A stretch of DNA of 64,000 nucleotides from the NCBI GenBank assembly GCA_963649145.1, contig CAVJGI010000002.1:4105-68104 (forward strand), in the 5' to 3' direction. Of the stretch, positions 984-47,741 are shown piece by piece. The number at the start of each line of letters is the position of its first letter. Within the stretch, counting starts at the first letter, position 1. The notes beneath the pieces were generated by a model that was not told the origin of the DNA, did not search any database, and worked only from the letters and a program-made list of their open reading frames with translations. Both the position numbers and the translations under genes were made by a program. The DNA is from Ruminococcus bicirculans (ex Wegman et al. 2014) (GTDB taxonomy: Bacteria > Bacillota > Clostridia > Oscillospirales > Oscillospiraceae).

Positions 984-1010
984 AGCGCCCCATGGGCGCT
1001 TTTTCGCTTT
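984..1010 (+). terminator. intrinsic terminator after the cysteine desulfurase gene
   Basis: AGCGCCC-CATG-GGCGCT hairpin followed by TTTTCGCTTT. Confidence 0.7.
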
Positions 1011-1034
1011 TTAAAACAGCACGCAGCAGGTGAA
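1011..1034. repeat. 24-bp direct repeat, left copy (TTAAAACAGCACGCAGCAGGTGAA); identical to 2386..2409
   Basis: Exact 24/24 identity read directly. The right copy is the stop codon plus the last 7 codons (FTCCVLF*) of the minus-strand gene 2386..2913. Confidence 0.9.
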
Positions 1035-1053
1035 AAGGTTCTCGGATACTTCC

Positions 1054-1082
1054 TTGCAAATCCAAAAGATGCGTGATATAAT
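1054..1082 (+). promoter_or_regulatory. sigma-A-type promoter for the lipoprotein gene
   Basis: TTGCAA, 17-nt spacer, TATAAT. An AAAGGAGG RBS sits 8 nt before the ATG at 1110. Confidence 0.7.
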
Positions 1083-1109
1083 GCCACTATCAAAAAGGAG
1101 GTAAATAGA

Positions 1110-2054
1110 ATGAAGAAAACACTTTGTCTGATCCTCGCACTCACTATGATATTTTCCCTTGCTGGATGCGGTAAAAGCGAAAAAACACCCGATGTTAAAC
1201 AAAGTAACATTATCGAGCCGTATCTGGATGAAGAAGGAAACTTCGTTAGCAGCCTCTCTAAATTCGTTGTCGAACCGGATAAGTATTTTCCGAAGAGCAC
1301 GGTTGAAACGAACTCAGAAGATGACGGCTCTCGCATTATGGTTTACGTTGAGTTCTGTACTCAGGAAGAGATTGATGCGTATGCCGCTGATGCTAAAGGC
1401 GATAGATTCGTCAAGCTGTCATATTCAGGAGACGATGGAAAAGGCTGGAATGATGCTGAGGGCTGGTATTCCTTTGCCGTTGCTACTGAGGACAGTGGCG
1501 ATGATGAACAGCCTTTGAATGCGCTGTTTATCTACTGCATCAATAGCGATTTCGCGTATGATTTGAGACATCCTAAGGTTGAGGAGTCGCCCGTCCCTAC
1601 TGTTGAACCGACTCCGGAGCCTACGCCCGAACCTGTAGAAGAAAAAGATATTCGGTGGGATGTGATCAGGGAGCACGTAAAGATGCTTTCAATCACTGGT
1701 CCTGTTTATACAGACGAAGAGTCCGTTCGGATAATTGATTATATGAGCGAAAATTCTTTTGGAAGCGATGATGGAACTGAAATTCGCGAGCTTCTTGATG
1801 AGGATCCTGCACTTTATGTAGCAGTTTTTACTTTTACGCTTTCTTCATTACTTAAAGAAGAAAATGTCGTTTCAGATAAGGATTTTGCTTCGGCAGCGAA
1901 AGCGCTCCAGTTTCTTTTCACGTTCTACTATTACGATTACGATAATGAAAATTTAAATACCTCACTTACAAACGACGAGCTTGAATTACTCGAAACTATT
2001 TACCAAAACAGCGAGATCTTAGACGTTCTTCCCGAAATCCTTTCTGATAAATAA
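1110..2054 (+). CDS. hypothetical lipoprotein encoded in a low-GC insert
   Basis: Signal peptide with lipobox (MKKTLCLILALTMIFSLAGCG) and a strong RBS. It has an EPTPEPTPEP linker. GC is visibly about 40% against about 68% in the flanks. No family was recognised. Confidence 0.75.
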   Translation: MKKTLCLILALTMIFSLAGCGKSEKTPDVKQSNIIEPYLDEEGNFVSSLSKFVVEPDKYFPKSTVETNSEDDGSRIMVYVEFCTQEEIDAYAADAKGDRFVKLSYSGDDGKGWNDAEGWYSFAVATEDSGDDEQPLNALFIYCINSDFAYDLRHPKVEESPVPTVEPTPEPTPEPVEEKDIRWDVIREHVKMLSITGPVYTDEESVRIIDYMSENSFGSDDGTEIRELLDEDPALYVAVFTFTLSSLLKEENVVSDKDFASAAKALQFLFTFYYYDYDNENLNTSLTNDELELLETIYQNSEILDVLPEILSDK

Positions 2055-2063
2055 CCTCTACCA

Positions 2064-2112
2064 AAGCCCTTGTACGGACCTCTAATCAGGTCTCGCAAGG
2101 GCTTTTCTTTTT
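2064..2112 (+). terminator. intrinsic terminator after the lipoprotein gene
   Basis: Long hairpin AAGCCCTTG...CAAGGGCTT with an inner GACCT/AGGTC stem, followed by TTTTCTTTTT. Confidence 0.75.
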
Positions 2113-2157
2113 GCAAAAATCGGTGAGAAATCGTCCGTAAACTGCTGGTCAGATTTG

Positions 2158-2339
2158 TGCCCAGTTTTTTCTTTCTGCCCACTTTTTCTGGGCGACTGAG
2201 AAAATTCGCAATGTGAAACCGAGTCAAAAATGCAAAAATGGCCAGAAAAGCTGGGCAATTGCCCACTTTTTAAAACAAAAGTGGCCAGCTGAAACCGTTG
2301 CGCCCCAACGGTTTGCGGGTTTCTGCCCACTTTGCCCAC
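2158..2339. repeat. cluster of TGCCCA(C/G)TT motifs plus the palindrome TGGGCAATTGCCCA
   Basis: Motif copies at 2158-2166, 2176-2184, 2260-2268 and 2324-2332, plus a partial copy at 2333-2339. The perfect 14-bp palindrome is at 2252-2265. The stretch is non-coding. Confidence 0.6.
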
Positions 2340-2385
2340 CTATTTTTCATTACGCGCGAGAAAAAATTTTATATGCAGCGCCTTC

Positions 2386-2913
2386 TTAAAACAGCACGCA
2401 GCAGGTGAAGGCGATCTTTTTGTCGCCGTAGTAGTAGGGGAGGGCGTTGCTGCGGCAGACGTCGCTGACGAAGAGACCGCAGGCTTCCATGGAGGGGGCG
2501 AGGGTCTCCGGGTGACGGCAGGGGGCGTCCGGGTAGGTACACGCCGCGCAGCGGGTGCAGGTTCCGGCGCCCATGGGCAGAAAATCGAGCCCCTGCGCGT
2601 GCAGACGCGCGAGAAGGCGGTAAAAATTCGCGTCGTTGCGTCGCGAGACCTCCTCCGCCGCCTCCAAATCGAGCGAGTCCTCGCGCTCACCGATGGTCTG
2701 GAGCAGAACGCCGCCGCGGTATTTCCCGGCGCGCTCCCGCCAAAGCTCCAGCTCGCCGCAGCCCGGCGGACAGCTCCACCTTCGCCCGAAGCTCCGGCAG
2801 CGGTCGGCGCGGCACATGCTGCGCACCTCCGGCAGAAAGCGCAGCGTCGCGGGGTCGAGGTCCGCCGCGGCGGAGAAACCGCATTCGAGCGCGGCGGCTT
2901 TCACGTCGATCAT
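2386..2913 (-). CDS. DUF2284-type predicted metal-binding protein (Cys-rich)
   Basis: Cys-rich motifs SMCRADRCRSFGRRWSCPPGCG and GAGTCTRCAACTYPDAPC. The RBS GAGAGGA lies upstream. Its last 24 nt are duplicated at 1011..1034. Confidence 0.65.
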   Translation of the reverse strand: MIDVKAAALECGFSAAADLDPATLRFLPEVRSMCRADRCRSFGRRWSCPPGCGELELWRERAGKYRGGVLLQTIGEREDSLDLEAAEEVSRRNDANFYRLLARLHAQGLDFLPMGAGTCTRCAACTYPDAPCRHPETLAPSMEACGLFVSDVCRSNALPYYYGDKKIAFTCCVLF

Positions 2914-2927
2914 CCGTCAAGGTCCTC

Positions 2928-4139
2928 TCATTCGTAAAAAAACATCGCGTCCACAAAGCGCTCGTCGAAGTCCCGCGCACCGGAGAGCTCCAGATAGCGG
3001 CAGCGCGCCGCCGCGCGGCGGACACCCTCGCGCCCGCAGTCCGTCAGACAGAGCGCCGCGCCGAGCCCGGCACTGTTGCCGACGTGGTGCGTCTTTTCGC
3101 GCAGCGCCGGGGGCAGCAGCCCGATGGTGCAGGCGCTGCGCAGGTCCATGGAAGCACCGAAGCCACCGGCGAGCAGAACCGCGGAGACATCCCCATACCG
3201 CTTGCCGCTGCGCGCGAGCAGCGTCTCGATCCCGGCGCGAACCGCCGCCTTCGCGAGCTGGAGCTGCCGCAGGTCCTGCGCCGTGACGAACACGCGGTCG
3301 GTGAGGTCATAGCGCTCGCCGCGCAGCCTGCCTGTCTCGTCGAGCAGACCGTTTTCGAGCAGCGCTGCCGCGGCGTCGATGAGCCCGCTGCCGCAGAGGG
3401 TCTCGGCGGTGCCGTCGCCGATCACGCGGACCGTCAGGTTGCGGTCCACGGCGTTGATCGCGCCCGGCACGGCGCGGGAGCCGCAGGCGATCTCCGCCCC
3501 CTCAAACGCCGGACCCGCCGCCGCAGCGCAGCAGAGAAAGCCGTCCCGGTCGCCGAGCGCCATCTCGCCGTTTGTGCCGACGTCCAGAAACAGCACGGTC
3601 TCCGCGCTCCCGGCAGCGCCGCTCGCGACCAGCCCGGCGGTGATGTCGCCGCCGACATAGCCGGAGACGGCGGGACAGAGATAGAGCATGCAGTCCGCCG
3701 GAAGACCGGGCAGGAACTCCGCTGCCGCGCGTTCAAAACCGAAGTGGCTCAGCGGTGTAAACGGCGCTCTTCCGATGCCCGCCGGCGAGAGCCCGGCGAA
3801 AAGATGCTCCATCACGGTGTTCCCCGCGACCGCGGCGCGGCGGAGGCGGGAGAGGTCCGGGCAGAGCGCGCGCAGCATCGCGCCGAGCTGGTCCCGGACG
3901 GCGCGCGTGAGCGCTTCGAGTCCGCCGGGCGTTTCCGCGTAGCGGATGCGGCTGATGACGTCCGCGCCGTAAGCGCACTGGGCGTTCCGCTCGCCGCACC
4001 GGGCAATGCCGTGGAGCAGACCGTCGTTTAAGATCTCCTGCGCGGAGTGCCCCTGCTCGATCGCGGCGGGAACGAGCTCCTTGACGGCTTTGACCCGCCC
4101 CTTCTCCACTGCGTCTGAAACCTTGTCCAGAATCGTCAT
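2928..4139 (-). CDS. ASKHA-domain corrinoid activation (RACo-like) protein; truncated or chimeric, with a B12-binding cap-like N-terminus
   Basis: The C-terminal ~350 aa carry RACo-type motifs (YGADVISRI, LFLDVGTNGEMALG, LAGGFG). The first ~50 aa (ILDKVSDAVEKGRVKAVKELVPAAIEQGHSAQEILNDGLL) resemble the helical cap of corrinoid proteins. There is no 2Fe-2S domain and no first DxGTT motif. Confidence 0.6.
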   Translation of the reverse strand: MTILDKVSDAVEKGRVKAVKELVPAAIEQGHSAQEILNDGLLHGIARCGERNAQCAYGADVISRIRYAETPGGLEALTRAVRDQLGAMLRALCPDLSRLRRAAVAGNTVMEHLFAGLSPAGIGRAPFTPLSHFGFERAAAEFLPGLPADCMLYLCPAVSGYVGGDITAGLVASGAAGSAETVLFLDVGTNGEMALGDRDGFLCCAAAAGPAFEGAEIACGSRAVPGAINAVDRNLTVRVIGDGTAETLCGSGLIDAAAALLENGLLDETGRLRGERYDLTDRVFVTAQDLRQLQLAKAAVRAGIETLLARSGKRYGDVSAVLLAGGFGASMDLRSACTIGLLPPALREKTHHVGNSAGLGAALCLTDCGREGVRRAAARCRYLELSGARDFDERFVDAMFFYE

Positions 4140-5431
4140 AAGTTCTCTGTCCTCTCGCTTATTTTTTCGGTGTCGATGCGGCGCGAGCGCTTGCGGAAGC
4201 GGTCCGGCGAAACGCCCTCAAGCTCGCGGAACACCTTGCAGAAATAGCTCTGGTCGCTGAAGCCGACAAGCTGGCAGACCTCCGCCACGGAGACGGGACC
4301 GGAGAGCAGGAGCAGCTTGCTGCGCTCGATGCGGATGCGGTTTAAATACGCGCGGTAGGTGACGCCCGTCTCCTCGCGGAACACGCGGGAGAAATAAGTC
4401 GGGGAGTAGCCCGCGGCTGCTGCGGCGTCCTCCAGCGTGAGCGGTTGGGCGTAATTCGCGGAGAGAAACTCGATCGCTCGCTGCACCGCGTCGGAAAGTC
4501 CGCTGCTGCCGAGGTCGATGACGAGACGGAGAAAGTGGTTCATCGTGCGCGAGAGCCGCGCCGTGAGGTCCGACTGGGATTCCGCGAGGCGCAGGTGCTC
4601 GCGGCAGCGGTCGCTGAGCTCAAACACCTGCGCGCTGCCCGCTCCGGCGGCGATCGCTGCGCGGGAGATGATGACGAGCAGCTCCTGCACGCGCTGCATA
4701 ATGTCCGCCTCGCTGCGGATATAGAAGAAAATATAGCCGAGGAGCTGACCCAGCAGCTCGTTCGCGAGCGCGGAATCTCCGCGGGCGACCGCCTCGTAGA
4801 GCGCCTGCTCGCGCGCCATGGGGTAGCCCACGGCGCGAGCGCTGCGCTTGATGCCCGCAATGTAGCTTCCGATATAATTCTGCTGGTCGTTCTCACTCTG
4901 GCTGAGAAAGACCTCATGGCTGCTGTCGCTGACGACGACGGCGCTCGCGAAGAGCTGACCGGAGAGATAGTGCAGACGCTGGGGCGTCATCGCCGGGACG
5001 CGCTCAAGTCCGTTGCGGAGCCTTACCTCGATCGCCGCGGGCAGCGGGGAGGGGAGCGCCTCGCTTTCGAGCACGTCGTCCGTCTCCGTGATGCGCACGG
5101 GACCGGCGATGAGCGCCGCCGTGGTCCTGCCGCCCTCGATGACCGGTGCGGCGCAGAAGGCGAGCCCCAGCGGGCAGAAGTAAGTATAGCGCCCGCCGAA
5201 GCGCTCCGAGGCGAGCACGCCCTCGGCGTGGAGCGCGCGGCAGTGCAGCCCGGTGAGCTGTAGCGAGTCGCGCAGGCGCTCGCAGAAGGCGCAGTCCGCC
5301 CCCTGCGGCGACTGGGCATAGAGCGCCTTTCCGTTCCGCGTGAGCAGCAGGCAGCGCACGTCGAGCGAAAGGGAAAAGGAATCCACCGCGGCGCGCGCAA
5401 GGCGCACCTCGATCGTGCTGCGGCTCGGCAT
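4136..5431 (-). CDS. PocR-domain / AraC-family transcriptional regulator
   Basis: N-terminal PocR-like sensory region (YTYFCPLGLAFCAAPV) and a C-terminal AraC HTH (YSPTYFSRVFREETGVTYRAYLNRIRIERSKLLL). GGAGG RBS. Confidence 0.8.
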   Translation of the reverse strand: MPSRSTIEVRLARAAVDSFSLSLDVRCLLLTRNGKALYAQSPQGADCAFCERLRDSLQLTGLHCRALHAEGVLASERFGGRYTYFCPLGLAFCAAPVIEGGRTTAALIAGPVRITETDDVLESEALPSPLPAAIEVRLRNGLERVPAMTPQRLHYLSGQLFASAVVVSDSSHEVFLSQSENDQQNYIGSYIAGIKRSARAVGYPMAREQALYEAVARGDSALANELLGQLLGYIFFYIRSEADIMQRVQELLVIISRAAIAAGAGSAQVFELSDRCREHLRLAESQSDLTARLSRTMNHFLRLVIDLGSSGLSDAVQRAIEFLSANYAQPLTLEDAAAAAGYSPTYFSRVFREETGVTYRAYLNRIRIERSKLLLLSGPVSVAEVCQLVGFSDQSYFCKVFRELEGVSPDRFRKRSRRIDTEKISERTENL

Positions 5432-5591
5432 GGGGGCCTCCTTTCGAGAAGATAGAGCAAAAAAATCATAAATTCCGAAAATGTTCTATATCCTCCGCCG
5501 CGCCGCGTCAGTAAGAATGTGAAAAAAGATGCGAATAAGATCAAAGCCTGACGAATAGCATGGAACCATCCGGGATCAAGGGGTTGCTGCC

Positions 5592-6281
5592 ATGCTTTCG
5601 TCTTTTCTTGCGCTGTTTTTTTCGGGACTCTTTTTCTCGCTGCGGCTCGGACCGGGGAGCGGGTCGTTCCCGCGCCCGCTGCGCGCGGAGGAGGAGGCGC
5701 GCGCTGTGGAGGCGTGGGTCTCCCGCGGCGACATCGCCGCGCGCAACGAGCTTGTGGAGCACAATCTCCGCCTCGTGGCGCACATCGTGAAGAAATACTA
5801 CGCCCACGCCGCCGATCAGGAGGACCTCATCTCCATCGGCACCATCGGCCTGATCAAAGGCGTCAGCACCTACCGCCCAGATAAAAAGGTCCGGCTCGCG
5901 ACCTATGCGAGCAGGTGTATTGAAAATGAGATCCTCATGTACTTCCGCGCGCAGCGGAAGAGTGCGGGGGACCTCAGTCTTTCGGACAGCATTGAGAGCG
6001 ACGGGGAGGGGAATTCTCTCTCGCTCATCGACGTTCTGGCGGGGGAGGAGGACCTCTTTGAGAATGTCAGCACCGCGGAGCTGCGCGGGCAGGTGCGCGA
6101 GGCGGTCGGTCGCGTGCTGGATGCGCGCGAGGCGGAGGTCATCCGCCTGCGCTACGGGCTCGATTCCGCCGCGCCGTTGACCCAGCGCGAGACCGCCGAG
6201 CGCTGCGGCATCAGCCGGAGCTATATATCGCGCATCGAGAAAAAAGCGCTCGAAAAGCTCCGCAACGCGATCGAGGGCTGA
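5592..6281 (+). CDS. sigK: sporulation sigma factor K (pro-sigma-K), uninterrupted
   Basis: Hydrophobic pro-sequence followed by FPRPL. Also has EHNLRLVAHIVKKY, DLISIGTIGLIK, ATYASRCIENEILMYFR and ISRSYISRIEKKAL, which closely parallel B. subtilis SigK. Confidence 0.85.
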   Translation: MLSSFLALFFSGLFFSLRLGPGSGSFPRPLRAEEEARAVEAWVSRGDIAARNELVEHNLRLVAHIVKKYYAHAADQEDLISIGTIGLIKGVSTYRPDKKVRLATYASRCIENEILMYFRAQRKSAGDLSLSDSIESDGEGNSLSLIDVLAGEEDLFENVSTAELRGQVREAVGRVLDAREAEVIRLRYGLDSAAPLTQRETAERCGISRSYISRIEKKALEKLRNAIEG

Positions 6282-6296
6282 CGCGGCACGCGCCCC

Positions 6297-6325
6297 TTGC
6301 GGAAAGCGCAAAAACGGCGTATAAT
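6297..6325 (+). promoter_or_regulatory. sigma-A-type promoter upstream of the HAD gene
   Basis: TTGCGG, 17-nt spacer, TATAAT. Confidence 0.55.
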
Positions 6326-6359
6326 GATACAATACCAACGAAAAAGGAGAGGAGCATTT

Positions 6360-7532: not shown

Positions 7533-7559
7533 GGCCGGACGGGGGAGACAAAAAATATC

Positions 7560-7588
7560 TTGCGATACGCCGGATAATTTGCTACAAT
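7560..7588 (+). promoter_or_regulatory. sigma-A-type promoter upstream of the DegV gene
   Basis: TTGCGA, 17-nt spacer, TACAAT. Confidence 0.55.
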
Positions 7589-7641
7589 GAAGCCCGTGCC
7601 GCATCGCGGCAGAGCTTTTTTGAAACAGGAGCCTGCGCTTT

Positions 7642-8487: not shown

Positions 8488-8495
8488 GGTTTTTC

Positions 8496-8555: not shown

Positions 8556-8618
8556 CATACAAAAATGATGCAACGCCGGGACATAATAAAACTCTGAAAA
8601 AAGAAGGTGGCGTTTGAA

Positions 8619-11922: not shown

Positions 11923-11996
11923 GACTACATAAAAACAAAAAGGGGAGGAGCGCCCGCTCCTCCCGCGCTTTTGCGAAGAAAGCTGGGAGACGAGAT

Positions 11997-12776
11997 ATGA
12001 AAAAACTGACCGTATTTCTGCTGCTCGCGGCGCTGCTGCTCTCGCTCGGAGCCTGCACCGTCCGTCCGGAGACGACTCCGGAGCCGACATCGGAGCCCAC
12101 CGCGGCGCCGACGCCGACGCCCGAACCGCCCCCGGAGCCCACGCCCACGCCGACACCGACCCCGGAACCGACCCCCACGCCCACGCCGGAGCCCACCCCG
12201 GAGCCGACGCCTTACCGCCCGGACGTGGACATCACGAGCTGGGAATATATCCTCGCGAACCCGACGCACGACATCGGGACCTATGTCCCGGAGCTCACGG
12301 AGCTCGAAGGCGGGCAGTATTTCGATTCCCGCGCCGTGGACGCGCTGAAGGACTTCATCGCCGCGGGGCGCGCCGAGGGGCTCAGCGTTTACCTCAGCTC
12401 CAGCTACCGCAGCTATGACATGCAGAATTACCTCTACGAGCGCAAGGTCGCCCAGTACGGCGGCGACCGCGCCGTCGCCGCGACGATCGTCGCCCCGCCG
12501 GGCACGAGCGAGCACCAGACCGGTCTTTGCTGCGATATCACGGACCAGTATTACGCCGTGAAGGACGCCTCGCTGGAGAACACCGCGCTTTATCAGTGGA
12601 TGGCGGTGCACTGTCAGGAATACGGCTTCATCGTCCGCTACCCGAAGGACCGGCAGGACGTGACCGGCATCATCTATGAGCCGTGGCATTTCCGCTATGT
12701 CGGCGTCGAGGCGGCGACGTTTATTATGGAAAACGACCTCACACTGGAGGAGTTCCTCGCGCTTTACGAGGATTGA
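11997..12776 (+). CDS. VanY/M15B-type D-alanyl-D-alanine carboxypeptidase lipoprotein (paralog)
   Basis: Lipobox LLLSLGAC, long Pro/Thr linker, SEHQTGLCCD and EPWHFRYVG. Confidence 0.85.
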   Translation: MKKLTVFLLLAALLLSLGACTVRPETTPEPTSEPTAAPTPTPEPPPEPTPTPTPTPEPTPTPTPEPTPEPTPYRPDVDITSWEYILANPTHDIGTYVPELTELEGGQYFDSRAVDALKDFIAAGRAEGLSVYLSSSYRSYDMQNYLYERKVAQYGGDRAVAATIVAPPGTSEHQTGLCCDITDQYYAVKDASLENTALYQWMAVHCQEYGFIVRYPKDRQDVTGIIYEPWHFRYVGVEAATFIMENDLTLEEFLALYED

Positions 12777-20737: not shown

Positions 20738-20744
20738 AAAAAAG

Positions 20745-20785
20745 AAAGGCGGACGCTTTCAAAAAAAGCGTCCGCCATTCTTTTC
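20745..20785. terminator. bidirectional terminator after ribF (left copy of a duplicated terminator arm)
   Basis: GGCGGACGC-loop-GCGTCCGCC with an A-run upstream and a T-run downstream. The 21 nt at 20738-20758 are repeated exactly at 21818-21838. Confidence 0.75.
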
Positions 20786-20793
20786 GGTTTCCG

Positions 20794-21741
20794 TCAGCTG
20801 TGGAAGGGACCGGGACCGGGCCATTTGCCGCTGCCGCCCATTTCGGCTTCGAGTTTTTCGAGCTGCTTCAGGAGGTTCATACGCACCGCCTCGTTCGGAA
20901 GGTCGGCGGCAAGGATCCCCATGCGGATCCCCTCGATGCTCAGCTCGCCCCGTCTGATCGCGTCCGCGGTCTCTTTGCCGAAGGTTAGCTCTTTGAAGCG
21001 TTCCTCCGGTGGCGTCATCTCGGTGATCTCCTCCGGTGTGTAGCCGCGGTTGCAGTACATCCGCGTCGTGTTGTGGAACGCGGTGAAAAGGTCGACAAAC
21101 ATTTTCATGGCGTTCTTGGACTTCATCCGGACGCCATACGCATCCAGAGCGTCGATGACCTCCTCCATCGCGGAGACCGTGACGTCGTTCACGATGCAAA
21201 GGAACTCGTAAAGAAGCGCGTTTGCGCTCACCTCGCTCAGACCGCCGCGCTCTGTCAGGAAGAGGAAAAGCCTGCGGCGCGCCGGGGTGTTCTCGCAGCA
21301 AAAGGGGTCGGCATATTCCAGAAAATCCTTTTTTTCCGGCACATAATAGGGCTTGCCCTGCTGAAGACTCTTTGTCTCGTAAATCAGCTCCCCGTCCTCG
21401 TCGAACAGCACATAGTTTATGATCTCGCGGTCAAGCGGCTTCGTGGGCTTTCCGTCGTCATAGAGCTCGTCATCGCCGAGGATGGAGTAGCACTCGCACT
21501 CATGCCGCGCGATCTCCGCAAAGGCGAGGAACTCCTCCTCCGTTACCAGCTTGGGGCTATAGGAGAAAACGATCTCCTTTGCCTTGCGCAGCGGGATGAT
21601 GCCGTAGAGATTTGCCATCGCGTTGAAATATTTGCGGAGGAGCCGCGAGGTCGTGTCCTTCAGCGGGATCTCCCGGTAAAGCGCGTTCAGCTGCCTGCGG
21701 GAATACTCCTGCGGGAATTCGTAATCTTTGTCCTTTGCCAT
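20794..21741 (-). CDS. hypothetical protein (orphan cassette gene), no recognisable domain
   Basis: Long ORF with its own TTGACT-17-TAGAAT promoter and GGAGGA RBS. The start was moved to the ATG at 21741 because the listed ATG at 21780 overlaps the -10 hexamer. GC looks lower (about 55-58%) than in the neighbours. Confidence 0.7.
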   Translation of the reverse strand: MAKDKDYEFPQEYSRRQLNALYREIPLKDTTSRLLRKYFNAMANLYGIIPLRKAKEIVFSYSPKLVTEEEFLAFAEIARHECECYSILGDDELYDDGKPTKPLDREIINYVLFDEDGELIYETKSLQQGKPYYVPEKKDFLEYADPFCCENTPARRRLFLFLTERGGLSEVSANALLYEFLCIVNDVTVSAMEEVIDALDAYGVRMKSKNAMKMFVDLFTAFHNTTRMYCNRGYTPEEITEMTPPEERFKELTFGKETADAIRRGELSIEGIRMGILAADLPNEAVRMNLLKQLEKLEAEMGGSGKWPGPGPFHS

Positions 21742-21778
21742 GTCGCTTCCTCCTCTGAATAATTGCGATCTCTTTGCC

Positions 21779-21807
21779 ATTCTAACGTGGATCGCGCTTC
21801 AAGTCAA
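21779..21807 (-). promoter_or_regulatory. sigma-A-type promoter of the orphan gene
   Basis: On the minus strand: TTGACT, 17-nt spacer, TAGAAT. Confidence 0.65.
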
Positions 21808-21824
21808 GCGGAACGGCAAAAAAG

Positions 21825-21857
21825 AAAGGCGGACGCTTACTTTGCGTTCGCCTTTTT
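21825..21857. terminator. bidirectional terminator (right copy), downstream of feoB on the minus strand
   Basis: GGCGGACGC-loop-GCGTTCGCC hairpin (one mismatch) with flanking A and T runs. Confidence 0.65.
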
Positions 21858-27035: not shown

Positions 27036-28061
27036 TCAGTCGTCTTCGTCCGGCGTGTCCGCGGCGGGACGGTCCGGGCGGAAATCGCCGAGCGGGTTCG
27101 CGCTCGCGGCGGAGCGGAGCTCGCTGCTGTCGACGTGGGTGTAGATCTGGGTGGTGTTGAGGTTTTCGTGCCCCAGCAGCTCCTGAAGCGTGCGGACGTC
27201 GACGCCGTTTTGCAGCATCAGCGTCGCCGCCGTGTGGCGCAGCTTGTGGGCGGAATACTTGTCCGCGTCCAGCCCGGCGCGCAGGAGGCTTTTTTTGACC
27301 ATGCTGTGGACCGCCTCGCGGCTGAGCCGCCCGTGGCGCGCGGAGAGAAAGAGCGCATTGCTCCGTGCCCCGGCGGTCGGGCGGACGAGCAGGTAGTCGT
27401 TGATGGCGGCGGCGGTGGCGTCATTCAAATAGACGACTCGCTCCTTGCCGCCCTTGCCGAACACGCGGAGATTATCGCTGCGCACGTCGGCGAGGTTCAG
27501 CCCCACGATCTCCGAAATGCGGAGACCGCAGTTTAGGAAGATACATAGAATGCAGTAGTCCCGCTCGCGGAAGCGTCCGTCCACGGCGGAGAGGAGCTGG
27601 CGGCTCTCCTCCAGCGTGAGGTAGCGGGGGAGGGCTTTCGGGATCTTCGGCGAGTCGAGGTCCTGCACGGGGTTTTCCTTCAGGAGCTTCGCCTTGCTCG
27701 TGAGATATTTATAAAAGCTCTTGATGGACGCGATCTTACGCGCGCGGCTCGCCGCGCCGATGCCGTAGCTCGTCTCGCGGCTATGCTGGTTGCGCACGCG
27801 GTCGCGGCTTAAAAACGAAAGGAACGCATACACTTCCGAGAGCGTCACCGAGCCGACAAAATCGAGGTCCACGTCCGCAATGTCGATCTCCTCGATGTCC
27901 GTTCCCGCGGGAACGACGCCGCGGCTTAGCTTCAGATAGCGGAAAAAGGTCCGCAGGTCGAGGAAGTATTCGTCCACGGTGTTCTTCGAGTGCCCGCGGA
28001 TGGTCTCGTGATAGGTGAGGAAGTCCTGTAAAATTTTCGGTGTTCCGGCTCTGTAGTCCAT
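27036..28061 (-). CDS. tyrosine recombinase, XerC/XerD-like
   Basis: The catalytic region has AHKLRHTAAT, LGHENLNTTQIYTHV and an ARxGRLS-type Arg. An SAM-like N-terminal domain is present. ATG at 28061 follows AAGAGG. Confidence 0.8.
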   Translation of the reverse strand: MDYRAGTPKILQDFLTYHETIRGHSKNTVDEYFLDLRTFFRYLKLSRGVVPAGTDIEEIDIADVDLDFVGSVTLSEVYAFLSFLSRDRVRNQHSRETSYGIGAASRARKIASIKSFYKYLTSKAKLLKENPVQDLDSPKIPKALPRYLTLEESRQLLSAVDGRFRERDYCILCIFLNCGLRISEIVGLNLADVRSDNLRVFGKGGKERVVYLNDATAAAINDYLLVRPTAGARSNALFLSARHGRLSREAVHSMVKKSLLRAGLDADKYSAHKLRHTAATLMLQNGVDVRTLQELLGHENLNTTQIYTHVDSSELRSAASANPLGDFRPDRPAADTPDEDD

Positions 28062-28244
28062 CAAACGCGCCTCTTTGTTCCGTAGCTTTTCCACAAACCA
28101 GCGCCGCCAGCGGCGCAGGGTATTTTTATCATTTTAACCGTTTTTTCCGCTTTCGTCAACATTGCAAAAATAATTCTATCTTTTTTGTCGAAAAGGTGGT
28201 ATAGTATCAGCATTCACTTCGTTTTTCCAAAGGAGGCAAACGCT

Positions 28245-40057: not shown

Positions 40058-40071
40058 CATGCAAGTTGGAG

Positions 40072-40632: not shown

Positions 40633-40634
40633 AG

Positions 40635-43466
40635 ATGCAGGACTCGATCATCATCCGCGGTGCGCGGGAGAACAATCTGAAAAATATCGACGTGGAGATC
40701 CCGCGCGACAAGCTCGTCGTCGTCACCGGGCTCTCCGGCAGCGGTAAGAGCAGCCTCGCCTTCGACACGATCTATGCCGAGGGCCAGCGCCGCTATGTGG
40801 AGAGCCTGTCGTCTTACGCGCGGCAGTTTCTCGGTCAGATGGACAAGCCCGATGTGGACAGCATCGACGGGCTTTCCCCCGCTATCTCCATCGACCAGAA
40901 GACCACGAGCCGCAACCCGCGCTCCACGGTCGGCACCGTTACGGAAATTTACGACTATCTCCGTCTGCTCTGGGCGCGCGTCGGCGTGCCGCACTGCCCG
41001 AAGTGCGGCAAGGAGATCCGCCAGCAGACGGTGGACCAGATCATCGACCAGCTCCTGACCCTGCCGGAGCGCGCGAAGCTCCAGATCCTCGCTCCGGTCG
41101 TCCGCGGACGCAAGGGCGAGCACGCCAAGGTCTTTGAGGACGCGCGCCGCGCCGGATTTGTCCGCGCCCGCGCGGACGGCAGCATGTTCGATCTCTCCGA
41201 GGAGATCAGGCTCGACAAGAACAAAAAGCACTCCATCGAGATCGTCGTGGACCGCATCGTCTTGAAGCCGGACATCACCCGCCGCCTGACCGACTCGGTC
41301 GAAACGGCACTGAAGCTTGCCGGCGGGCTCGTGCTCGTTACGGTCGCGGACGAGGCGGGGGAGCGGGAGCTCAGCTTTTCCCAGAACTACGCCTGCGAGG
41401 ACTGCGGCATCTCCATCGAGGAGCTGACGCCGCGGCTTTTCTCCTTCAATAACCCCTTCGGCGCCTGCCCGACCTGCGGCGGTCTCGGCGTCCAGCTTCA
41501 GGTGGACCCGGCGCTCATTATCCCGGACCCCGGCAAGTCGATCTTAGACGGCGCGATCACCGCCTCCGGCTGGGGCAACGTCCGCGAGGACACCATTTCC
41601 CGCATGTATTTCGACGCGCTCGCAAAGCGCTATCATTTCAAGCTCACGGACCCCGTGTCCAGCCTCTCCAAGGATGCGCTGGACGCCGTGCTTTACGGCA
41701 CGAAGGGCGAAAAGCTGGAGCTTTCCTATGAGCGCAAGAGCGGCAAGGGCACGCTGAGCCAGCCCTTCGAGGGCGTCATCACGAACTTAAACCGCCGCTA
41801 CCGCGAGACCCAGAGCGCCACGATGCGCGAGGATCTGGAGCAGTGCATGAGCGAGATCCCCTGCCCGGACTGCGCCGGACGGCGCTTAAAGCGCGAAGCC
41901 CTCGCCGTCACGGTCGGCGGGCTGAACATTATGGAGTTCACGGAGCTCAGTGTAGAAAACGAGCTGGCGTTCATCAATGATCTGCACCTTGAAGGTCAGA
42001 AGCTGATGATCGCGGGTCAGATTTTAAAGGAGATCCGCTCGCGGCTGGAGTTCCTCTCCAGCGTCGGGCTCTCTTACCTGACGCTCTCGCGCGCCGCGGC
42101 GACACTGAGCGGCGGCGAGGCGCAGCGCATCCGCCTTGCGACCCAGATCGGGTCGAGTCTGATGGGCGTGCTCTATATCCTCGACGAGCCCTCCATCGGT
42201 CTGCACCAGCGCGACAACGCGAAGCTGATCGCAACGCTCAAGCACCTGCGCGACATCGGCAATACCCTCATCGTCGTCGAGCACGACACGGACACCATGT
42301 ATGCCGCGGACCACATCATCGACATCGGTCCCGGCGCGGGCGTCCACGGCGGCGAGCTCGTCGGGCAGGGCACCGTGGCGGACATCTGTGCGAGCCCGCG
42401 TAGCGTCACGGGCGACTATCTGAGCGGCAGGAAGAAGATCCCCGTCCCGCCTTCTCGCCGGAGCGGGACCGGAAAATTCCTCACCGTCCGCGGCGCGGCG
42501 GAGAACAACCTCAAGAATATCGACGCGCGCTTTCCGCTCGGCGTGTTCACCTGCGTCACCGGCGTTTCCGGCAGCGGCAAGAGCAGCCTTGTGAACGAAA
42601 TTCTCTATAAAACGCTCGCTTCGCGCTTAAACCGCATGAAGGTCCGCCCCGGCAAGTGCGCCGGTGTGGACGGGCTGGAGAACGTGGACAAGGTCATCGC
42701 CATCGACCAGAGCCCGATCGGGCGCTCTCCGCGCTCCAACCCCGCGACTTATACCGGCATGTTCAACGATATCCGCGACCTCTTCGCCGAGAGCAGCGAC
42801 GCCAAGCTCCGCGGCTACGGTCCCGGCAGATTCTCCTTCAACGTCCGCGGCGGACGCTGCGAAGCCTGCGCGGGCGACGGTCTGCTCAAGATCGAGATGC
42901 ACTTCCTGCCGGATATTTATGTCCCCTGCGAGGTCTGCCACGGCGCACGCTATAACCGCGAGACGCTAGAGGTGCGCTATAAGGGCAAAAACATCGCCGA
43001 GGTGCTCGACATGACAGTCGAGGAGGCGGTCACGTATTTCGAGAACATCCCCAAGATCCGCGACCGGGTCCAGACGCTGCTGGACGTCGGGCTCGGCTAT
43101 ATCAAGCTCGGCCAGCCGGCGACGACGCTCTCCGGCGGCGAGGCGCAGCGCGTGAAGCTCGCGACGGAGCTCAGCAAGCGCAGCACCGGGCGCACGGTCT
43201 ACGTCCTCGACGAGCCGACCACGGGACTGCACATGGCGGACGTCCACCGCCTCATCGACGTGCTCCAGAAGCTCACCGACGCGGGCAACACCGTCATCGT
43301 CATCGAGCACAATCTGGACGTCATCAAATGCGCCGACCACATCATCGACCTCGGTCCCGAAGGCGGCGACAAGGGCGGGCAGATCGTCTTCACCGGAACG
43401 CCGGAGCAGTGCGCCGAGTGTCCGGAGAGCGCCACGGGCGAATTTCTGAAGGCAATGCTGGAATAA
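40635..43466 (+). CDS. uvrA: excinuclease ABC subunit A
   Basis: [48 protein letters not shown], two ABC modules and zinc-finger Cys clusters. Confidence 0.98.
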
Positions 43467-43488
43467 CGAGAGAAAAAACGGGGGAACC

Positions 43489-45696
43489 ATGGAAAACGGC
43501 TTTGACGAGCTCGTCGGCACCGTCGATGAGATCATCTATACCAACGAGGAAAACGGCTATACCGTGCTGCGTCTGGAGCGGGACGACGGCGAGACCGTCA
43601 CCGCGACGGGCTGTCTGCCCTTCGCCGCGCCCGGCGAGCAGCTCATGCTCTACGGGAGCTGGACGACCCACGCGACTTACGGCCAGCAGTTCCGCGCGGA
43701 ATACGCCGAGCGGAGCATGCCGCGCGGCGCGGAGGCGGTGTATGAATATCTCGCGAGCCGCGTCATCCGCGGCGTCGGACCCGCGACGGCGAGCGTCATC
43801 ATCTCCGCCTTCGGGGACAAGGCGCTGGACGTCATCGAAAACGAGCCGGAAAAGCTCGCCGGACTGCGCGGGATCAGTCTGAAAAAGGCGAAGGAGATGA
43901 GCGAGGCGCTCCGGCGTCAGCTCGGTCTGCGCCGGTTGATGGAGTTCCTGAACAGCCACGGTCTGAAGCCCCACTTCGCCATGCGGCTCTACCGCTCTTA
44001 CGGCGACCGCGCGCTCTCGCTCATTCAGGAAAACCCCTATATCCTCTGCGCGCCCCATATCGGCGCAGAGTTTTCCGACGCGGACACACTCGCGCTCGAC
44101 CTCGGTCTCGACGGGGACAGCCCGGAGCGCATCTCCGCCGCCGTCTGCTTTGAGCTCCAGCATAACGCCGGGAACGGCCATGTCTTCATCCCGCGCGAAA
44201 AGCTCATCCTTGCGACCGCCAAGCTCCTCAATATCGAGCCCGGGGCGGTGGAGAGCGGGCTCGACGAGCTGCTGCGCCGCGGCGACGTGGTGGAGCAGTC
44301 CGTCGCCGGCTGTGAGGCTTGCTATCTGAAGGACCTTTACGAAGCCGAGCGCAGCAGCGCAGAGCGGCTTTCCACCATGGCTGCGGCGCGCTTTTCCTGC
44401 AAGCAGGATTTTTCCGAGCTGCTCGGCGGCATCGAGCGCGCGCAGGGCATTACTTACGCACCCCAGCAGCGCAAAACGCTGGAGACCGCCTCCCGGTCCC
44501 AGCTGATGCTCATCACCGGCGGACCCGGCACCGGCAAGACGACGACGGTCCGCGCCATCATCGCCATGTATGAAACGCTGGGGCTCACGGTCCAGCTCGC
44601 CGCCCCGACGGGGCGCGCGGCAAAGCGCATGGCGGAGCTTACGGGCTGCGAGGCGGTGACGATCCACCGTCTGCTGGAGGCGGGCTATGCCGAGGGCAGC
44701 TTTGACCTCGTTTTCAAGCGTAATGCGGCAAATCCGCTGCGCTGCGACGCGCTCATCGTGGATGAGTGCTCCATGATCGACATCACGCTCCTCGCCGCGC
44801 TGCTCGCCGCGCTGCCGCGCGAGTGCCGTCTTATTTTAGTCGGCGACGCGGACCAGCTTCCGAGCGTCGGACCCGGCAACGTGTTTCTCGATATCCTGCG
44901 CTCGAACCGCGTTGCGGTCGTGCGCCTGACGGAAATTTTCCGCCAGACGGCGGACAGCCGCATCGTGCAGTACGCCCACCGGATCAACGCCGGCGAGCAT
45001 CCGCCCATTGCGGAGAATAAAGGCGACTTTTTCTTCATGCGCCGCCTGAAGCCGGACGCCGCCGTGCAGCTCATCGTCCAGCTCTGCGCCGAGCGGCTGC
45101 CGAAAAATATGCACATCCCCTCGGAGGAGATCCAAGTCCTGACCCCGATGCGCCGCGGCGGTGCGGGGGTCTATGCCTTAAACGCCGCGCTTCAGGCGGC
45201 GCTCAACCCGCCCGCGGAGGGCAAGCCGGAGAAAAAATTCGGCGAATTTATCTTCCGGCTCGGCGATCGGGTGATGCAAATCCGAAATAACTATGATATA
45301 ATATGGACCACCGCCGACCAGAAAACCGCCGGGACCGGCGTTTTCAACGGCGACATCGGCTATATCACCGCCATCGACCCCGCGCAGGAGACGCTCACCG
45401 TCGACTTCGACGGGCGCAGCGCGCTCTACGGCTTCGATATGCTCTCCGAGCTCGAACACGCTTGGGCGATGACGGTCCACAAATCGCAGGGCAGCGAATA
45501 CCGCGCCGTCATCCTCTGCGTCTGCGGCGCGCCGCGCCAGCTCGCTTACCGCGGCGTGCTCTATACCGCCGTGACCCGCGCGCGCGAGCTGCTCATCGCC
45601 GTCGGGGACGACGGGCTCATCGACCAGATGATCGACAACCACAAGCAGGCGCGGCGCTACAGCGGACTGCGCGCGCGGCTTGCCGAGGCGGAGTGA
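43489..45696 (+). CDS. recD2: RecD2-like SF1B ATP-dependent DNA helicase
   Basis: ITGGPGTGKTT Walker A, LIVDECSM, LVGDADQLPSVGPGNV and TVHKSQGSE motifs. Confidence 0.9.
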   Translation: MENGFDELVGTVDEIIYTNEENGYTVLRLERDDGETVTATGCLPFAAPGEQLMLYGSWTTHATYGQQFRAEYAERSMPRGAEAVYEYLASRVIRGVGPATASVIISAFGDKALDVIENEPEKLAGLRGISLKKAKEMSEALRRQLGLRRLMEFLNSHGLKPHFAMRLYRSYGDRALSLIQENPYILCAPHIGAEFSDADTLALDLGLDGDSPERISAAVCFELQHNAGNGHVFIPREKLILATAKLLNIEPGAVESGLDELLRRGDVVEQSVAGCEACYLKDLYEAERSSAERLSTMAAARFSCKQDFSELLGGIERAQGITYAPQQRKTLETASRSQLMLITGGPGTGKTTTVRAIIAMYETLGLTVQLAAPTGRAAKRMAELTGCEAVTIHRLLEAGYAEGSFDLVFKRNAANPLRCDALIVDECSMIDITLLAALLAALPRECRLILVGDADQLPSVGPGNVFLDILRSNRVAVVRLTEIFRQTADSRIVQYAHRINAGEHPPIAENKGDFFFMRRLKPDAAVQLIVQLCAERLPKNMHIPSEEIQVLTPMRRGGAGVYALNAALQAALNPPAEGKPEKKFGEFIFRLGDRVMQIRNNYDIIWTTADQKTAGTGVFNGDIGYITAIDPAQETLTVDFDGRSALYGFDMLSELEHAWAMTVHKSQGSEYRAVILCVCGAPRQLAYRGVLYTAVTRARELLIAVGDDGLIDQMIDNHKQARRYSGLRARLAEAE

Positions 45697-45701
45697 GCGC
45701 G

Positions 45702-46355
45702 ATGGGGCTTCTTTCCGCCGTTCTGGACCTGCTTTACCCGCCGCGCTGCGTGTTCTGCCGCCGCATCATGCGCTCCTCAGCCGAGCGCGTCTGCCCGGAC
45801 TGCGCAAAAACGCTGCCCTACGCGGGCGCGAGAGGGGAGCGGCATGGCGACTTTTTCAGCGTCTGCTGCGCGCCGCTGCTCTACGAAGGCGCCGTGCGCG
45901 AATCGCTGTTGCGCTATAAGTTCCACGAATGCCCCGGCTACGCCGCGCCTTACGGTGAGATCCTCGCCGCGTGTGTCCGCGAGGAGCTGGACGGGCGCTG
46001 GGACACGCTCTCGTGGGTGCCGCTCAGCCGCCGGAGACTGCGCGAGCGCGGCTATGATCAGGCGCAGCTGCTCGCCGGGGAGACGGCGGAGCGCCTTGGG
46101 ACCGCGGCGGTGCGGACGCTCGAAAAGCACGTGGACACCGCGCGGCAGTCCGCCACGGGAAGCCGCGAAAAGCGCGCGGCGAACATCTCCGGCGCTTACC
46201 GCGTCCCGGACCCCGCCCTCGTCGCCGGGCGGCGCATCCTGCTCATCGACGACATTATGACCACGGGCGCGACGCTCTCGGAGGCAGCCCGCACCCTGCG
46301 CGCCGCCGGCGCGTCGGAGGTCGTCTGCGCGGTGCTGGCGACGTCGCCGGACTAA
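45702..46355 (+). CDS. comFC: ComF-family protein (ComFC, PRTase-like)
   Basis: N-terminal zinc-finger CVFC...CPDC and PRTase motif ILLIDDIMTTGATL. Confidence 0.85.
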   Translation: MGLLSAVLDLLYPPRCVFCRRIMRSSAERVCPDCAKTLPYAGARGERHGDFFSVCCAPLLYEGAVRESLLRYKFHECPGYAAPYGEILAACVREELDGRWDTLSWVPLSRRRLRERGYDQAQLLAGETAERLGTAAVRTLEKHVDTARQSATGSREKRAANISGAYRVPDPALVAGRRILLIDDIMTTGATLSEAARTLRAAGASEVVCAVLATSPD

Positions 46356-46414
46356 AGCCGGAAATTTCAGTCTATACTTTTGCCTATACTTATTGATTTG
46401 AGGAGAACGGACCC

Positions 46415-47446
46415 ATGCTCTTTTTTGAGAGAGACATCGCAATCGACCTTGGAACGACCAACACGCTGGTCTATGTCCGCGGAAAGGGCGTCGCCATGCG
46501 CGAGCCGACCATCGTCGCCGTGGACAAGACGACCGGGAAGCTGCTGAAGATCGGCGAGGAGGCGCAGAAGATGCTGGGGCGCACCCCGGCGAACATCGTC
46601 GCCATCCACCCGATCGCGAACGGCGTCATTTCCGACTACGACATGACCACCCGCATGCTTCAGGAGCTGCTGAGCCGCGTCACGAGCTTCAGCTTTTTCA
46701 AGCCGCGCGTGATCGTCTGCGTGCCGAGCAGCATCACCGGCGTGGAGGAGCGCGCCATCATCGACGCGACAATCGAAGCCGGTGCGCGAAAGGTCTACCT
46801 GCTGGAGACCGCCGTCGCAACGAGCACCGGCGCGGGAATCGACATCTCCAAGCCGGAGGGCCATCTCGTCATCGACATCGGCGGCGGCACGACGGAGGTC
46901 GCCGTGGTCTCCCTCGGCGGCGTGGTGGAGGTCGAGTCCATCAAGACCGCGGGCGACGAGTTCGACGAGGCGATCGTCCGGTACATACGCCGGAAGCACA
47001 ACGTCCTCATCGGCGCGCGCACCGCGGAGGAGCTCAAGCGCGCCATCGGCTGCGTCTATACCCGGCGCGAGGTCGAGACCCGTGAGGTCAAGGGCCGCTG
47101 CCTGCTGACCGGTCTGCCCAAGGCGGTCACGGTCAACTCCAACGACATGATCGAGGCGCTCGCCGAGCCGGTCGAAAAGGTGCTGGAGACCATCCACATG
47201 GTTTTGGAGCGCACCCCGCCGGAGCTCGTGGCGGACATCTCCGTCAACGGCATCGTCATGTCCGGCGGCGGCAGCCTTCTCTGGGGGCTCGACAAGCTCA
47301 TCACGAGCCGCACCGGGATCGAAGCCGTCGTAGTGGACGACACCCTCGCCTGTGCCGCCTACGGAGCCGGAAAAATGCTCCGCGAGCTGAACAACATGCA
47401 GGAGGGCATGATCAACCTCGCGAGAAGAAAGCAGATGAAAGGGTAA
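46415..47446 (+). CDS. mreB: rod-shape-determining protein MreB
   Basis: IAIDLGTTNTLVY, VIDIGGGTTEVAV and MSGGGSLL actin-fold motifs. Confidence 0.95.
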   Translation: MLFFERDIAIDLGTTNTLVYVRGKGVAMREPTIVAVDKTTGKLLKIGEEAQKMLGRTPANIVAIHPIANGVISDYDMTTRMLQELLSRVTSFSFFKPRVIVCVPSSITGVEERAIIDATIEAGARKVYLLETAVATSTGAGIDISKPEGHLVIDIGGGTTEVAVVSLGGVVEVESIKTAGDEFDEAIVRYIRRKHNVLIGARTAEELKRAIGCVYTRREVETREVKGRCLLTGLPKAVTVNSNDMIEALAEPVEKVLETIHMVLERTPPELVADISVNGIVMSGGGSLLWGLDKLITSRTGIEAVVVDDTLACAAYGAGKMLRELNNMQEGMINLARRKQMKG

Positions 47447-47448
47447 AA

Positions 47449-47478
47449 AAACCGGCTCCCGAACGGGAGCCGGTTTTT
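47449..47478. repeat. 30-bp terminator hairpin, left copy (AAACCGGCTCCCGAACGGGAGCCGGTTTTT)
   Basis: Exact copy of 47712..47741 in direct orientation. The asymmetric GAAC loop fixes the orientation. Confidence 0.9.
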
Positions 47479-47711
47479 CAGCCTGTCAAAAAAAGTCCAA
47501 ACAACGCGGCGAAGCCGCACAATTTAAAGGCCTCCCTGTGTAAGGGAGGCTGTCAGCCGAAGGCTGACTGGAGGGTTGTAAGCTTCTGAAATTGCCAAGC
47601 TTGGCGTTTTCGGAAGCTTGGTAACAACCCCTCAGTCGCGCTTCGCGCGCCAGCTCCCCTTGCACAGGGGAGCCTTTAAAATCGCAGATCGCGGAGTTCT
47701 TTGACAGGCTG
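47479..47711. mobile_element. 233-bp non-coding fold-back element with 12-bp perfect terminal inverted repeats (MITE-like)
   Basis: CAGCCTGTCAAA at 47479-47490 and TTTGACAGGCTG at 47700-47711. The two arms are colinear imperfect inverted copies around the central CCAAGCTTGG. There is no ORF, and the element is flanked by the 30-bp duplication. Confidence 0.6.
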
Positions 47712-47741
47712 AAACCGGCTCCCGAACGGGAGCCGGTTTTT
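47712..47741. repeat. 30-bp terminator hairpin, right copy
   Basis: Identical to 47449..47478. It also serves as the terminator for the minus-strand hydrolase gene. Confidence 0.9.

Follow-up and report, generated by a model that had tools for sequence, protein, structure and literature searches.

What placed three unrelated inserts between convergent genes, each at an intrinsic terminator and each bracketed by an exact direct duplication, within one 64,000-nucleotide stretch of the Ruminococcus bicirculans genome? A reading made from the letters alone (hereafter the sequence-only reading) had suggested a common terminator-proximal insertion route, with a site-specific recombinase or template switching as its agent. 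The stretch, which we call the window, corresponds to positions 4105–68104 of contig C2 in an assembly of 2.23 Mb, 158 contigs and 62.5% GC, and has itself a GC content of ~63%. In our analysis the three inserts have no one demonstrated common origin: the insert at site 3 is a miniature inverted-repeat transposable element (MITE) moved in trans by a transposase of the IS1182 family, while those at sites 1 and 2 are gene cassettes without transposon ends (end-less cassettes). We put the probability of this reading at roughly 0.75.

The three exact direct repeats were verified on the sequence and measure 24, 21 and 30 bp at sites 1, 2 and 3, respectively. By our estimate, only ~3e-4 exact recurrences of a 21-mer within 6 kb are expected in 64 kb at 63% GC. 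Gene and domain annotation of the window confirmed that the flanking genes are convergent at all three sites: a class-V aminotransferase (+) and DUF2284 (–) at site 1, ribF (+) and feoB (–) at site 2, and mreB (+) and an alpha/beta hydrolase (–) at site 3. The association with terminators was confirmed as well and takes a different form each time, the repeat being a whole hairpin at site 3, the 5′ arm of a duplicated hairpin at site 2, and a segment 2–3 nt past the terminator at site 1. Our terminator scanner called the hairpins at 980–1004, 20748–20776 and 21823–21857 and missed that of site 3 (ccggctccc-gaac-gggagccgg+T5), which is evident by eye. The payloads are mutually dissimilar, and whole-genome BLAST found inserts 1 and 2 to be single copy.

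To polarize the inserts, we compared the window with two sister genomes of the same genus, G006 and G002, which are 91–97% identical to it around the three sites. All three inserts are absent from G006, and from G002 where its contigs permit the comparison, and one repeat copy stands in their place. Given one repeat copy and no insert in the sister species, all three are insertions relative to the sister, and the empty sites identify the long duplications as true target duplications. The inserts and the duplications flanking them are recent.

At site 3, the duplicated hairpin encloses a noncoding element with an inner palindromic module:

47449–47478, unstranded: left target-site duplication, the whole mreB/hydrolase terminator hairpin (30 bp), single in G006 and G002
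47479–47711, unstranded: noncoding MITE, 233 bp, whose terminal inverted repeats of 16 bp lie at 47479–47494 (CAGCCTGTCAAAAAAA) and 47696–47711 (CAGCCTGTCAAAGAAC)
47523–47680, unstranded: inner palindromic module of 158 bp, TTTAAAGG...CCTTTAAA; many BLAST matches cover element positions 45–202 only
47712–47741, unstranded: right target-site duplication, identical to the left copy

Read through, the element starts with CAGCCTGTCAAAAAAA and finishes with GTTCTTTGACAGGCTG, the two forming the 16-bp inverted repeats, and in both sister genomes the alignment runs unbroken through the site and shows the 30-bp hairpin once. Whole-genome BLAST found 132 loci related to the 233-bp element, 68 of which reach a contig end. 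Duplicated hairpins flank the MITE on C2, C4, C12, C13, C32, C34, C49 and C87, with the older copies somewhat diverged. We scored the element ends at 14 positions of a consensus built from the ends of an insertion sequence (IS), and the two ends of the site-3 insert agreed with it at 13 and 14 positions. Being short, noncoding and multicopy, and having IS-type terminal inverted repeats and flanking target duplications, the insert is a MITE by every feature that characterizes the class.

The 158-bp module (TTTAAAGGCCTCCC...GGGGAGCCTTTAAA) also stands alone at many loci, where the outer inverted ends are missing, and ~45–55 copies of its terminal 24-mer were counted. It has the appearance of an independent second repeat family that inserted into the MITE.

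The parent IS was traced through the contig ends. The 16-bp ends (CAGCYYGTCAAAGAAC) occur on ~47 contig ends, at which the element interrupts the assembly, and the 16-mer heads two longer contig-terminating sequences: end A (55 nt, ~23 contig ends), containing a TATAAT box directed inward, and end B (101 nt, ~24 contig ends). This pattern points to a near-identical IS of ~23 copies, the interior of which was collapsed and lost from the bin. The assembly lacks the interior of the IS: the models PF01609, PF05598 and PF13751 had no match in the genome of the window, and PF01609 and PF13751 had none in five metagenome-assembled genomes of the same genus. Searches for the interior with a 41-nt stretch of end A in metagenome contigs, and with end B in 40 related genomes and in plasmids, returned nothing, and the 16-mer end pattern gave only chance matches outside this genome across 300 genomes of the order.

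Among 300 genomes of the same bacterial family, 78 matched PF13751, a domain of IS1182-type transposases. Locus L049 carries an intact element of 1507 bp with ends CAGTCTGTCAAAGAAC; its left end aligns to end A, GGTATAATGnAAnAAACG included, and its right end to end B, including the subterminal hairpin and GGTTCT. The transposase of L049 has matches to DUF772, DDE_Tnp_1 and DDE_Tnp_1_6, the domain set of the IS1182 family, and reaches 386.6 bits with the IS1182 equivalog model NF033551 of NCBIfam (cut-off 270). Intact relatives are 1507–1524 bp long and have a single open reading frame (ORF) of 470–476 aa, and more than 5,500 relatives were found, mainly on contigs of 1.5–2 kb. In end B, 24 codons up to the stop can be read (..DNSIFQPIFACFSLSCKRTPAFAA*; ..NSIF..CKRTPAFAA*), and they agree with the conserved C terminus of the clade, ..WSWxNSIF....CKRTPAFAC. 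Based on the shared ends, the 24-codon C terminus and the L049 transposase, we assign the parent IS to the IS1182 family; judged by these sequence features it is probably a member, and with sizes taken from the intact relatives it also has the short terminal inverted repeats, the length of 1.3–2 kb and the one ORF expected of the family.

The sequence-only reading had named a genome-wide scan of terminators and duplications as one way to check the pattern. Our count covered the 91 element ends whose outside flank was at least 45 nt long, and registered those at which a perfect stem of at least 7 bp ends at most 4 nt from the boundary. In total, 81 ends (89%) adjoin the foot of a hairpin, compared with 1.5% of random positions:

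IS end A: 22/23 adjoining a hairpin
IS end B: 23/24
other (MITE or solo) ends: 36/44
random genome positions: 77/5000 (1.5%)

When A-end and B-end flanks were paired by sequence, exact direct duplications were found at 12 IS copies, with lengths of 45, 29, 24, 34, 33, 36, 33, 35, 31, 31, 19 and 19 bp. Each is a whole palindrome, often taking in the paired A- and T-tracts of a bidirectional terminator. When the flanks were joined minus one copy and searched, 7 of the 12 sites were contiguous, with a single hairpin, in G006 and/or G002. The intact relative at L088 has an exact hairpin duplication of 35 bp, and elsewhere in the genus, duplicated hairpins again enclose end-to-end mini-elements of 34 bp and a short MITE of a different type in other species. 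Insertions of the parent IS and its MITEs lie at the feet of GC-rich palindromic hairpins, most of them intrinsic terminators, and the full palindrome is duplicated in direct orientation, with a complete hairpin kept on each side. As the target hairpins are mutually unrelated, insertion is independent of primary sequence, and as a whole hairpin stands on both sides, both flanking genes retain a terminator. Palindromic targets and long direct repeats of variable length further agree with membership in the IS1182 family, for which the ISfinder table gives direct repeats of 0–60 bp.

For site 3, these products suggest that the MITE was mobilized in trans by an IS1182-family DDE transposase acting on the 16-bp inverted ends. 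The transposase would attack the 5′ feet of a cruciform hairpin, and the two complementary single-stranded palindromes would subsequently be filled in. Such an attack would correspond to pathway "b" of the model for IS1272, pathway "a", at the 3′ feet, removing the stem-loop. As the agent of the route, a site-specific recombinase or template switching gives way to a DDE transposase of the IS1182 family working on its own 16-bp inverted ends.

Hairpin targeting is already known for the IS1182 family, and whole-hairpin duplication is a complementary outcome, seen here on a large scale. IS1272, a member of the family, targets terminator hairpins independent of sequence and causes a deletion without duplication (PMC5678879, PMC4923244); both papers cite a review (Siguier 2015) for some IS1182 members targeting palindromes, and the published model predicts that the entire stem-loop is duplicated upon attack at the 5′ feet as a hypothetical alternative pathway (PMC5678879). 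The staphylococcal IS1272/TnSha1 and the element here share the transposase family, 16-bp terminal inverted repeats and the recognition of terminator-type hairpins by structure (PMC5678879, PMC4923244). They differ in that IS1272 deletes the stem-loop wholly or in part and leaves no target duplication, whereas the element here duplicates the entire stem-loop exactly (19–45 bp) and its family has produced a large MITE population. Replacement of a stem-loop of the IS1272 type does not describe our sites, where the empty form has one hairpin and the occupied form two exact copies. Other IS1182-type elements in the same bacterial family have ends GGGGCTGTCGCAAAA... and no hairpin flanks in the loci examined, which makes hairpin-foot insertion a property of the clade and not of the whole family.

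Repetitive extragenic palindromes (REP/REPIN) and the insertion sequences targeting them (RAYT, IS1397, IS110/IS1111) are similar in combining abundant intergenic palindromes with elements homing to hairpins. Those systems use HUH or DEDD enzymes or make 3–4-bp duplications in a specific repeat family, whereas the targets in this genome are unrelated, unique terminators, every one of them duplicated as a whole.

Several observations weigh against our reading. The family call rests on the ends, the 24 C-terminal codons and the intact relative, the transposase of the IS itself being absent from the assembly, and the attack at the 5′ feet is inferred from products only. Among related elements, L086 has a 10-bp non-hairpin duplication, and L049, L089 and L042 lie between two different hairpins. 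At three older MITEs (C12 15369–15594, C32 8952–9186 and C34 6995–7229), the stems are identical and one loop is approximately the reverse complement of the other, an inversion that simple fill-in does not predict. Finally, site 2 shares the geometry of whole-hairpin duplication with the IS, and the same enzyme may have acted there. Given the four exceptional elements, we regard whole-hairpin duplication as frequent and not obligatory, with insertion at the hairpin foot as the rule in the clade. All 12 recent IS copies are strictly direct, and the loop inversions presumably are later events; the hairpin loops at these sites differ between strains.

This genome and its sister species make up an unusually clean natural data set of exact whole-hairpin duplications with matching empty sites. 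The outcome complements the stem-loop deletion by IS1272 and matches a pathway that figures in the IS1272 model as no more than a possibility. At each insertion a terminator is regenerated for both neighbors, which plausibly explains the tolerance of more than 100 copies in a 2.2-Mb genome. Duplicated hairpins of this kind are liable to be mistaken for att sites or for the products of template switching.

Some further repeats were seen around these hairpins. In the IS-end flanks on C6, C20, C23, C31, C33, C45, C97, C106, C113, C114 and C140, many hairpins have the core GAGACCGCC-N3-4-GGCGGTCTC; this core marks a preferred target, or else the hairpins are a repeated family of terminators or of the REP-like kind. 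One boundary of a ~190-bp repeat is the hairpin GCTCTCCCTCTGGGAGAGC, and the other is the loop-inverted form of that hairpin (C49 402–589 and 10285–10474, C54 3781–4100, C113 3581–3771), and an IS copy on C62 and a 150-bp MITE on C29 adjoin hairpins of the GCTCTCCCTCTGGGAGAGC type. G000, G006 and G002 contain dozens of copies of a ~175-bp family, AAAAAGCCTCGCAGAGTTCGCGCC...GCTGAGCGGAGTGAATCC, e.g., in G000 at C17 ~11980–12150, in the flank of the C12/C99 junction, and on C43 and C99. Mini-elements consisting only of back-to-back 16-bp ends (34–37 bp) were found at hairpins at L031 (G001:C3), L032 and L029 (G004) and L018 (G104:C7), and may be extreme deletion derivatives of the IS.

Site 2, like site 3, has a duplicated hairpin, with an insert of another kind:

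20738–20776, unstranded: left hairpin copy, the bidirectional terminator after ribF, with its stem-loop at 20748–20776
20777–21817, minus strand: insert of ~1.04 kb and 57% GC, with an ORF at 20797–21741 (315 aa) and a promoter at 21807–21779
21818–21857, unstranded: right hairpin copy with its stem-loop at 21823–21857; the loop has diverged and the 3′ arm is that of the single copy in G006

The exact repeat (20738–20758 and 21818–21838, 21 bp) is part of a duplicated unit of ~39 bp that comprises complete hairpins, in which identity persists in the 5′ arm alone and the loops and one base of the 3′ arm have diverged. In G006 there is a single hairpin between ribF and feoB, at which the alignment blocks overlap by 43 bp, and the insert is also absent from G002. 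A 97%-identical strain shares the insertion and has its loops mutated differently. No Pfam or NCBIfam model matched the inserted gene. It has more than 500 homologues of ~329 aa with a C-terminal SEC-C motif, which the copy in the window has lost, and comparison with PHROG and PADLOC gave no match beyond the SEC-C motif. We rejected the gene as an autonomous mobile gene on finding a homologue in a stable chromosomal context without flanking repeats.

The 97%-identical strain (L084) has an extra insertion of ~610 bp (reverse complement, ~2335–2946) that encodes a membrane protein of 157 aa; it lies between a small ORF downstream of the site-2 hairpin and feoB, and is absent from the window.

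Site 1 differs in its repeat, which is not a hairpin and starts at the foot of one:

980–1004, plus strand: terminator hairpin of the cysteine-desulfurase-like gene; the repeat starts 2–3 nt beyond
1007–1034, unstranded: left repeat, exact core 1011–1034 (24 bp), with a full length of 28 bp if one mismatch is allowed; it duplicates the 3′ end of the DUF2284 gene and is orphaned
1035–2385, plus strand: insert of 1351 bp, 43% GC compared with 62.5% in the genome
1054–1082, plus strand: promoter of the cassette
1110–2054, plus strand: lipoprotein ORF of the cassette
near 2064–2107, plus strand: the cassette's own terminator
2266–2277, unstranded: partial third copy of the repeat, CTTTTTAAAACA (12 nt exact), right after the palindrome and where L077 homology stops
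2382–2409, unstranded: right repeat, exact core 2386–2409, comprising the stop and the last seven codons of the DUF2284 gene (2386–2913, minus strand)

In G006 the terminator is followed directly by the 3′ end of DUF2284. Only two homologues of the encoded protein turned up among 5.8 billion. One of them lies on a metagenome contig (L077), from an organism of 65–69% GC with the same MITE family, in a homologous cassette of 44% GC that is 77% identical to window positions 1049–2268. There the cassette lies between different genes, directly after a MITE-duplicated hairpin, and ends at the perfect palindrome TGGGCAATTGCCCA, located at 2252–2265 in the window. Its presence at a different locus indicates that the cassette is mobile. 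At one end of the cassette only, ~8 copies of TGCCCACTT, i.e., TGCCCA(C/G)TTTT, occur in both orientations across ~180 bp (2158–2340). This motif cluster and TGGGCAATTGCCCA resemble binding sites for proteins, clustered as at a transposon end or an origin.

These features allow a different explanation of site 1, as a miniature or decayed integrative element moved in trans by a tyrosine or serine recombinase, with the 24–28-bp repeat at the 3′ end of DUF2284 as the attL/attR core. Like many att sites of integrases, the repeat rebuilds a gene's 3′ end; the composition of the insert (43% GC) is foreign, its right part has the ~8 copies of a 9–10-nt motif in both orientations, like arm-type binding sites, and a partial third core copy lies inside it. 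The genome also has at least one classical case of the att type, on C70 (6831–10312), where an exact 42-bp direct repeat of a tRNA 3′ end surrounds 3.4 kb of 54% GC in what looks like an integrase-type island. The insert of site 1 itself contains no recombinase gene, the nearest being 25 kb away and unlinked, and the cassette of L077 at an unrelated target argues against a fixed att site. We consider the explanation unlikely.

The nearest recombinase is the only tyrosine recombinase in the window:

27036–28094, minus strand: Xer-like tyrosine recombinase gene, Phage_integrase and SAM-like domain

The sequence-only reading had seen no link between this gene and the inserts, and we found none either. 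Site-specific or Xer-type integration is not what the three sites show, as the inserts lack a recombinase gene, the three repeats are unrelated to one another and unlike dif, and the target in L077 differs. An origin of the 28-bp repeat of site 1 at dif through Xer, as in integrative mobile elements exploiting Xer (IMEX), was discarded: the repeat is GC rich, nonpalindromic and unlike the other two repeats.

Could sites 1 and 2 instead be ancestral and lost from the sister species by deletion between the direct repeats? An empty site alone cannot separate an insertion from such a deletion. At site 1, the insert is foreign in composition, occurs elsewhere in the genome of a related organism and encodes a protein with only two homologues. 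At site 2, the regions matching ribF and feoB that we fetched from the more distant genus members G001, G003 and G004 contain no homologue of the inserted gene, and G003 has different DNA between the two matches. The hairpin in G006, moreover, combines the left loop type with the right 3′ arm and is not the product of a crossover in the 21-bp arm. The GC content of 43%, the L077 locus, the absence of the site-2 gene from the regions fetched from distant relatives and the hairpin type of G006 together make a deletion in the sister lineage highly improbable. Sites 1 and 2 are single-copy, promoter-bearing cassettes that entered the lineage after its split from the sister species.

We then ask whether the enzyme behind site 3 could have inserted these cassettes too. 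Within 45 nt of each cassette boundary at sites 1 and 2, the best match to the transposon-end consensus covered 7–9 of the 14 positions, as in random 45-nt windows; cryptic transposon ends at the boundaries were dropped as candidates for this background-level match. Neither insert has inverted ends or mobility genes. We scanned the genome for otherwise unique hairpins repeated within 6 kb, using an exact-arm and a BLAST-based version of the search, and found, apart from the MITE cases, three further end-less inserts between duplicated hairpins:

C17:12173–12526: 274 bp, a small gene with a consensus promoter and its stop codon adjoining the hairpin; repeat of 40 bp, 95% identity
C26:6351–8251: 1.8 kb, two genes; repeat of 37 bp, 86% identity
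C94:4248–4455: 125 bp

The small gene on C17 is presumably BrnA-like, an assignment we make by reading its sequence only.

A single hairpin-directed enzyme for all three sites, the IS1182 transposase or another structure-specific integrase, would account for the direct duplication of a whole unique hairpin at site 2, C17 and C26, a product like that of the IS, and for the site-1 repeat beginning at a hairpin foot. The cassette in L077, located right after a MITE-duplicated hairpin, may have a diverged 3′-arm repeat (~17/22 nt). DDE transposases require their own ends, however, and those of the cassettes match at background level; there is no hairpin within the site-1 repeat, and a separate search found neither tandem-hairpin footprints of excision nor hybrid structures, returning CRISPR (clustered regularly interspaced short palindromic repeats) arrays only. 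One enzyme for all three inserts appears doubtful to us. Of the common terminator-proximal route, the part that stands is that a hairpin-directed route operates in this genome, at very high frequency, and demonstrably accounts for site 3 alone of the three.

A broader form of the idea has terminator hairpins as general landing pads for end-less promoter-plus-gene cassettes by structure-directed integration. An IS1182-type transposase might act on noncognate DNA, or host cleavage at the feet of a cruciform might be followed by end capture, and since the terminator would be duplicated, every transcription unit would remain terminated. Site 2, C17, C26 and C94 are candidates for such products, and the cassette of site 1 may be one as well, both here and in L077. 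We hold this to be improbable; if end-less cassettes do use the same structural target, terminators would be a route of gene gain.

In descriptive terms, sites 1 and 2 fit "insertion with long target duplication" (Nobusato 2000; Furuta 2010), the closest of the described categories, reported for restriction-modification genes in several bacteria and of no known mechanism (PMC2853133). As there described, the class and our sites have in common unique gene-bearing DNA, absent from a relative and without inverted ends or mobility genes, and a direct duplication of tens of base pairs that is single in the empty genome and often lies over the 3′ end of a gene (PMC2853133). Both sites here have each of these: the insert is unique and absent from the relative, the empty site has the repeat once, and mobility genes and inverted ends are lacking. 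They differ in cargo, which is restriction-modification genes in the described cases and a lipoprotein and a SEC-C-family gene here, and in repeat length, the cut-off given there being >30 bp and the repeats here measuring 24–39 bp; that of site 1 (24–28 bp) falls below the 30-bp cut-off of PMC2853133. In addition, the repeats here are anchored on terminator hairpins, a link that goes unmentioned in the passages of PMC2853133 consulted.

That a class of such insertions exists without a known enzyme lends some weight to an origin of the end-less inserts in replication template switching or break repair at stalled forks or cleaved hairpins, with no mobile-element enzyme involved. The duplicated segments lie at or beside strong palindromes with fast-evolving loops, in some cases inverted, which is a signature of template switching. 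Such switching, however, draws on DNA inside the cell, whereas the insert of site 1 is foreign, and no donor copy of any cassette is present in the genome; we rate this origin as quite unlikely. For sites 1 and 2 we favor staggered breaks at or beside the hairpin, after which foreign DNA would have been captured, which is an inference.

Off-target integration by Cas1–Cas2, which would give the same topology with a palindromic repeat duplicated on both sides of an insert, was set aside because the inserts of 0.1–1.8 kb are far above spacer size. The genome has two adjacent CRISPR arrays at C14:24470–26550, with the repeats GTCGCGCCCCGCAAGGGGCGCGTGTATGACGAT and ...GTGGATTGAAAT and ~30 spacers.

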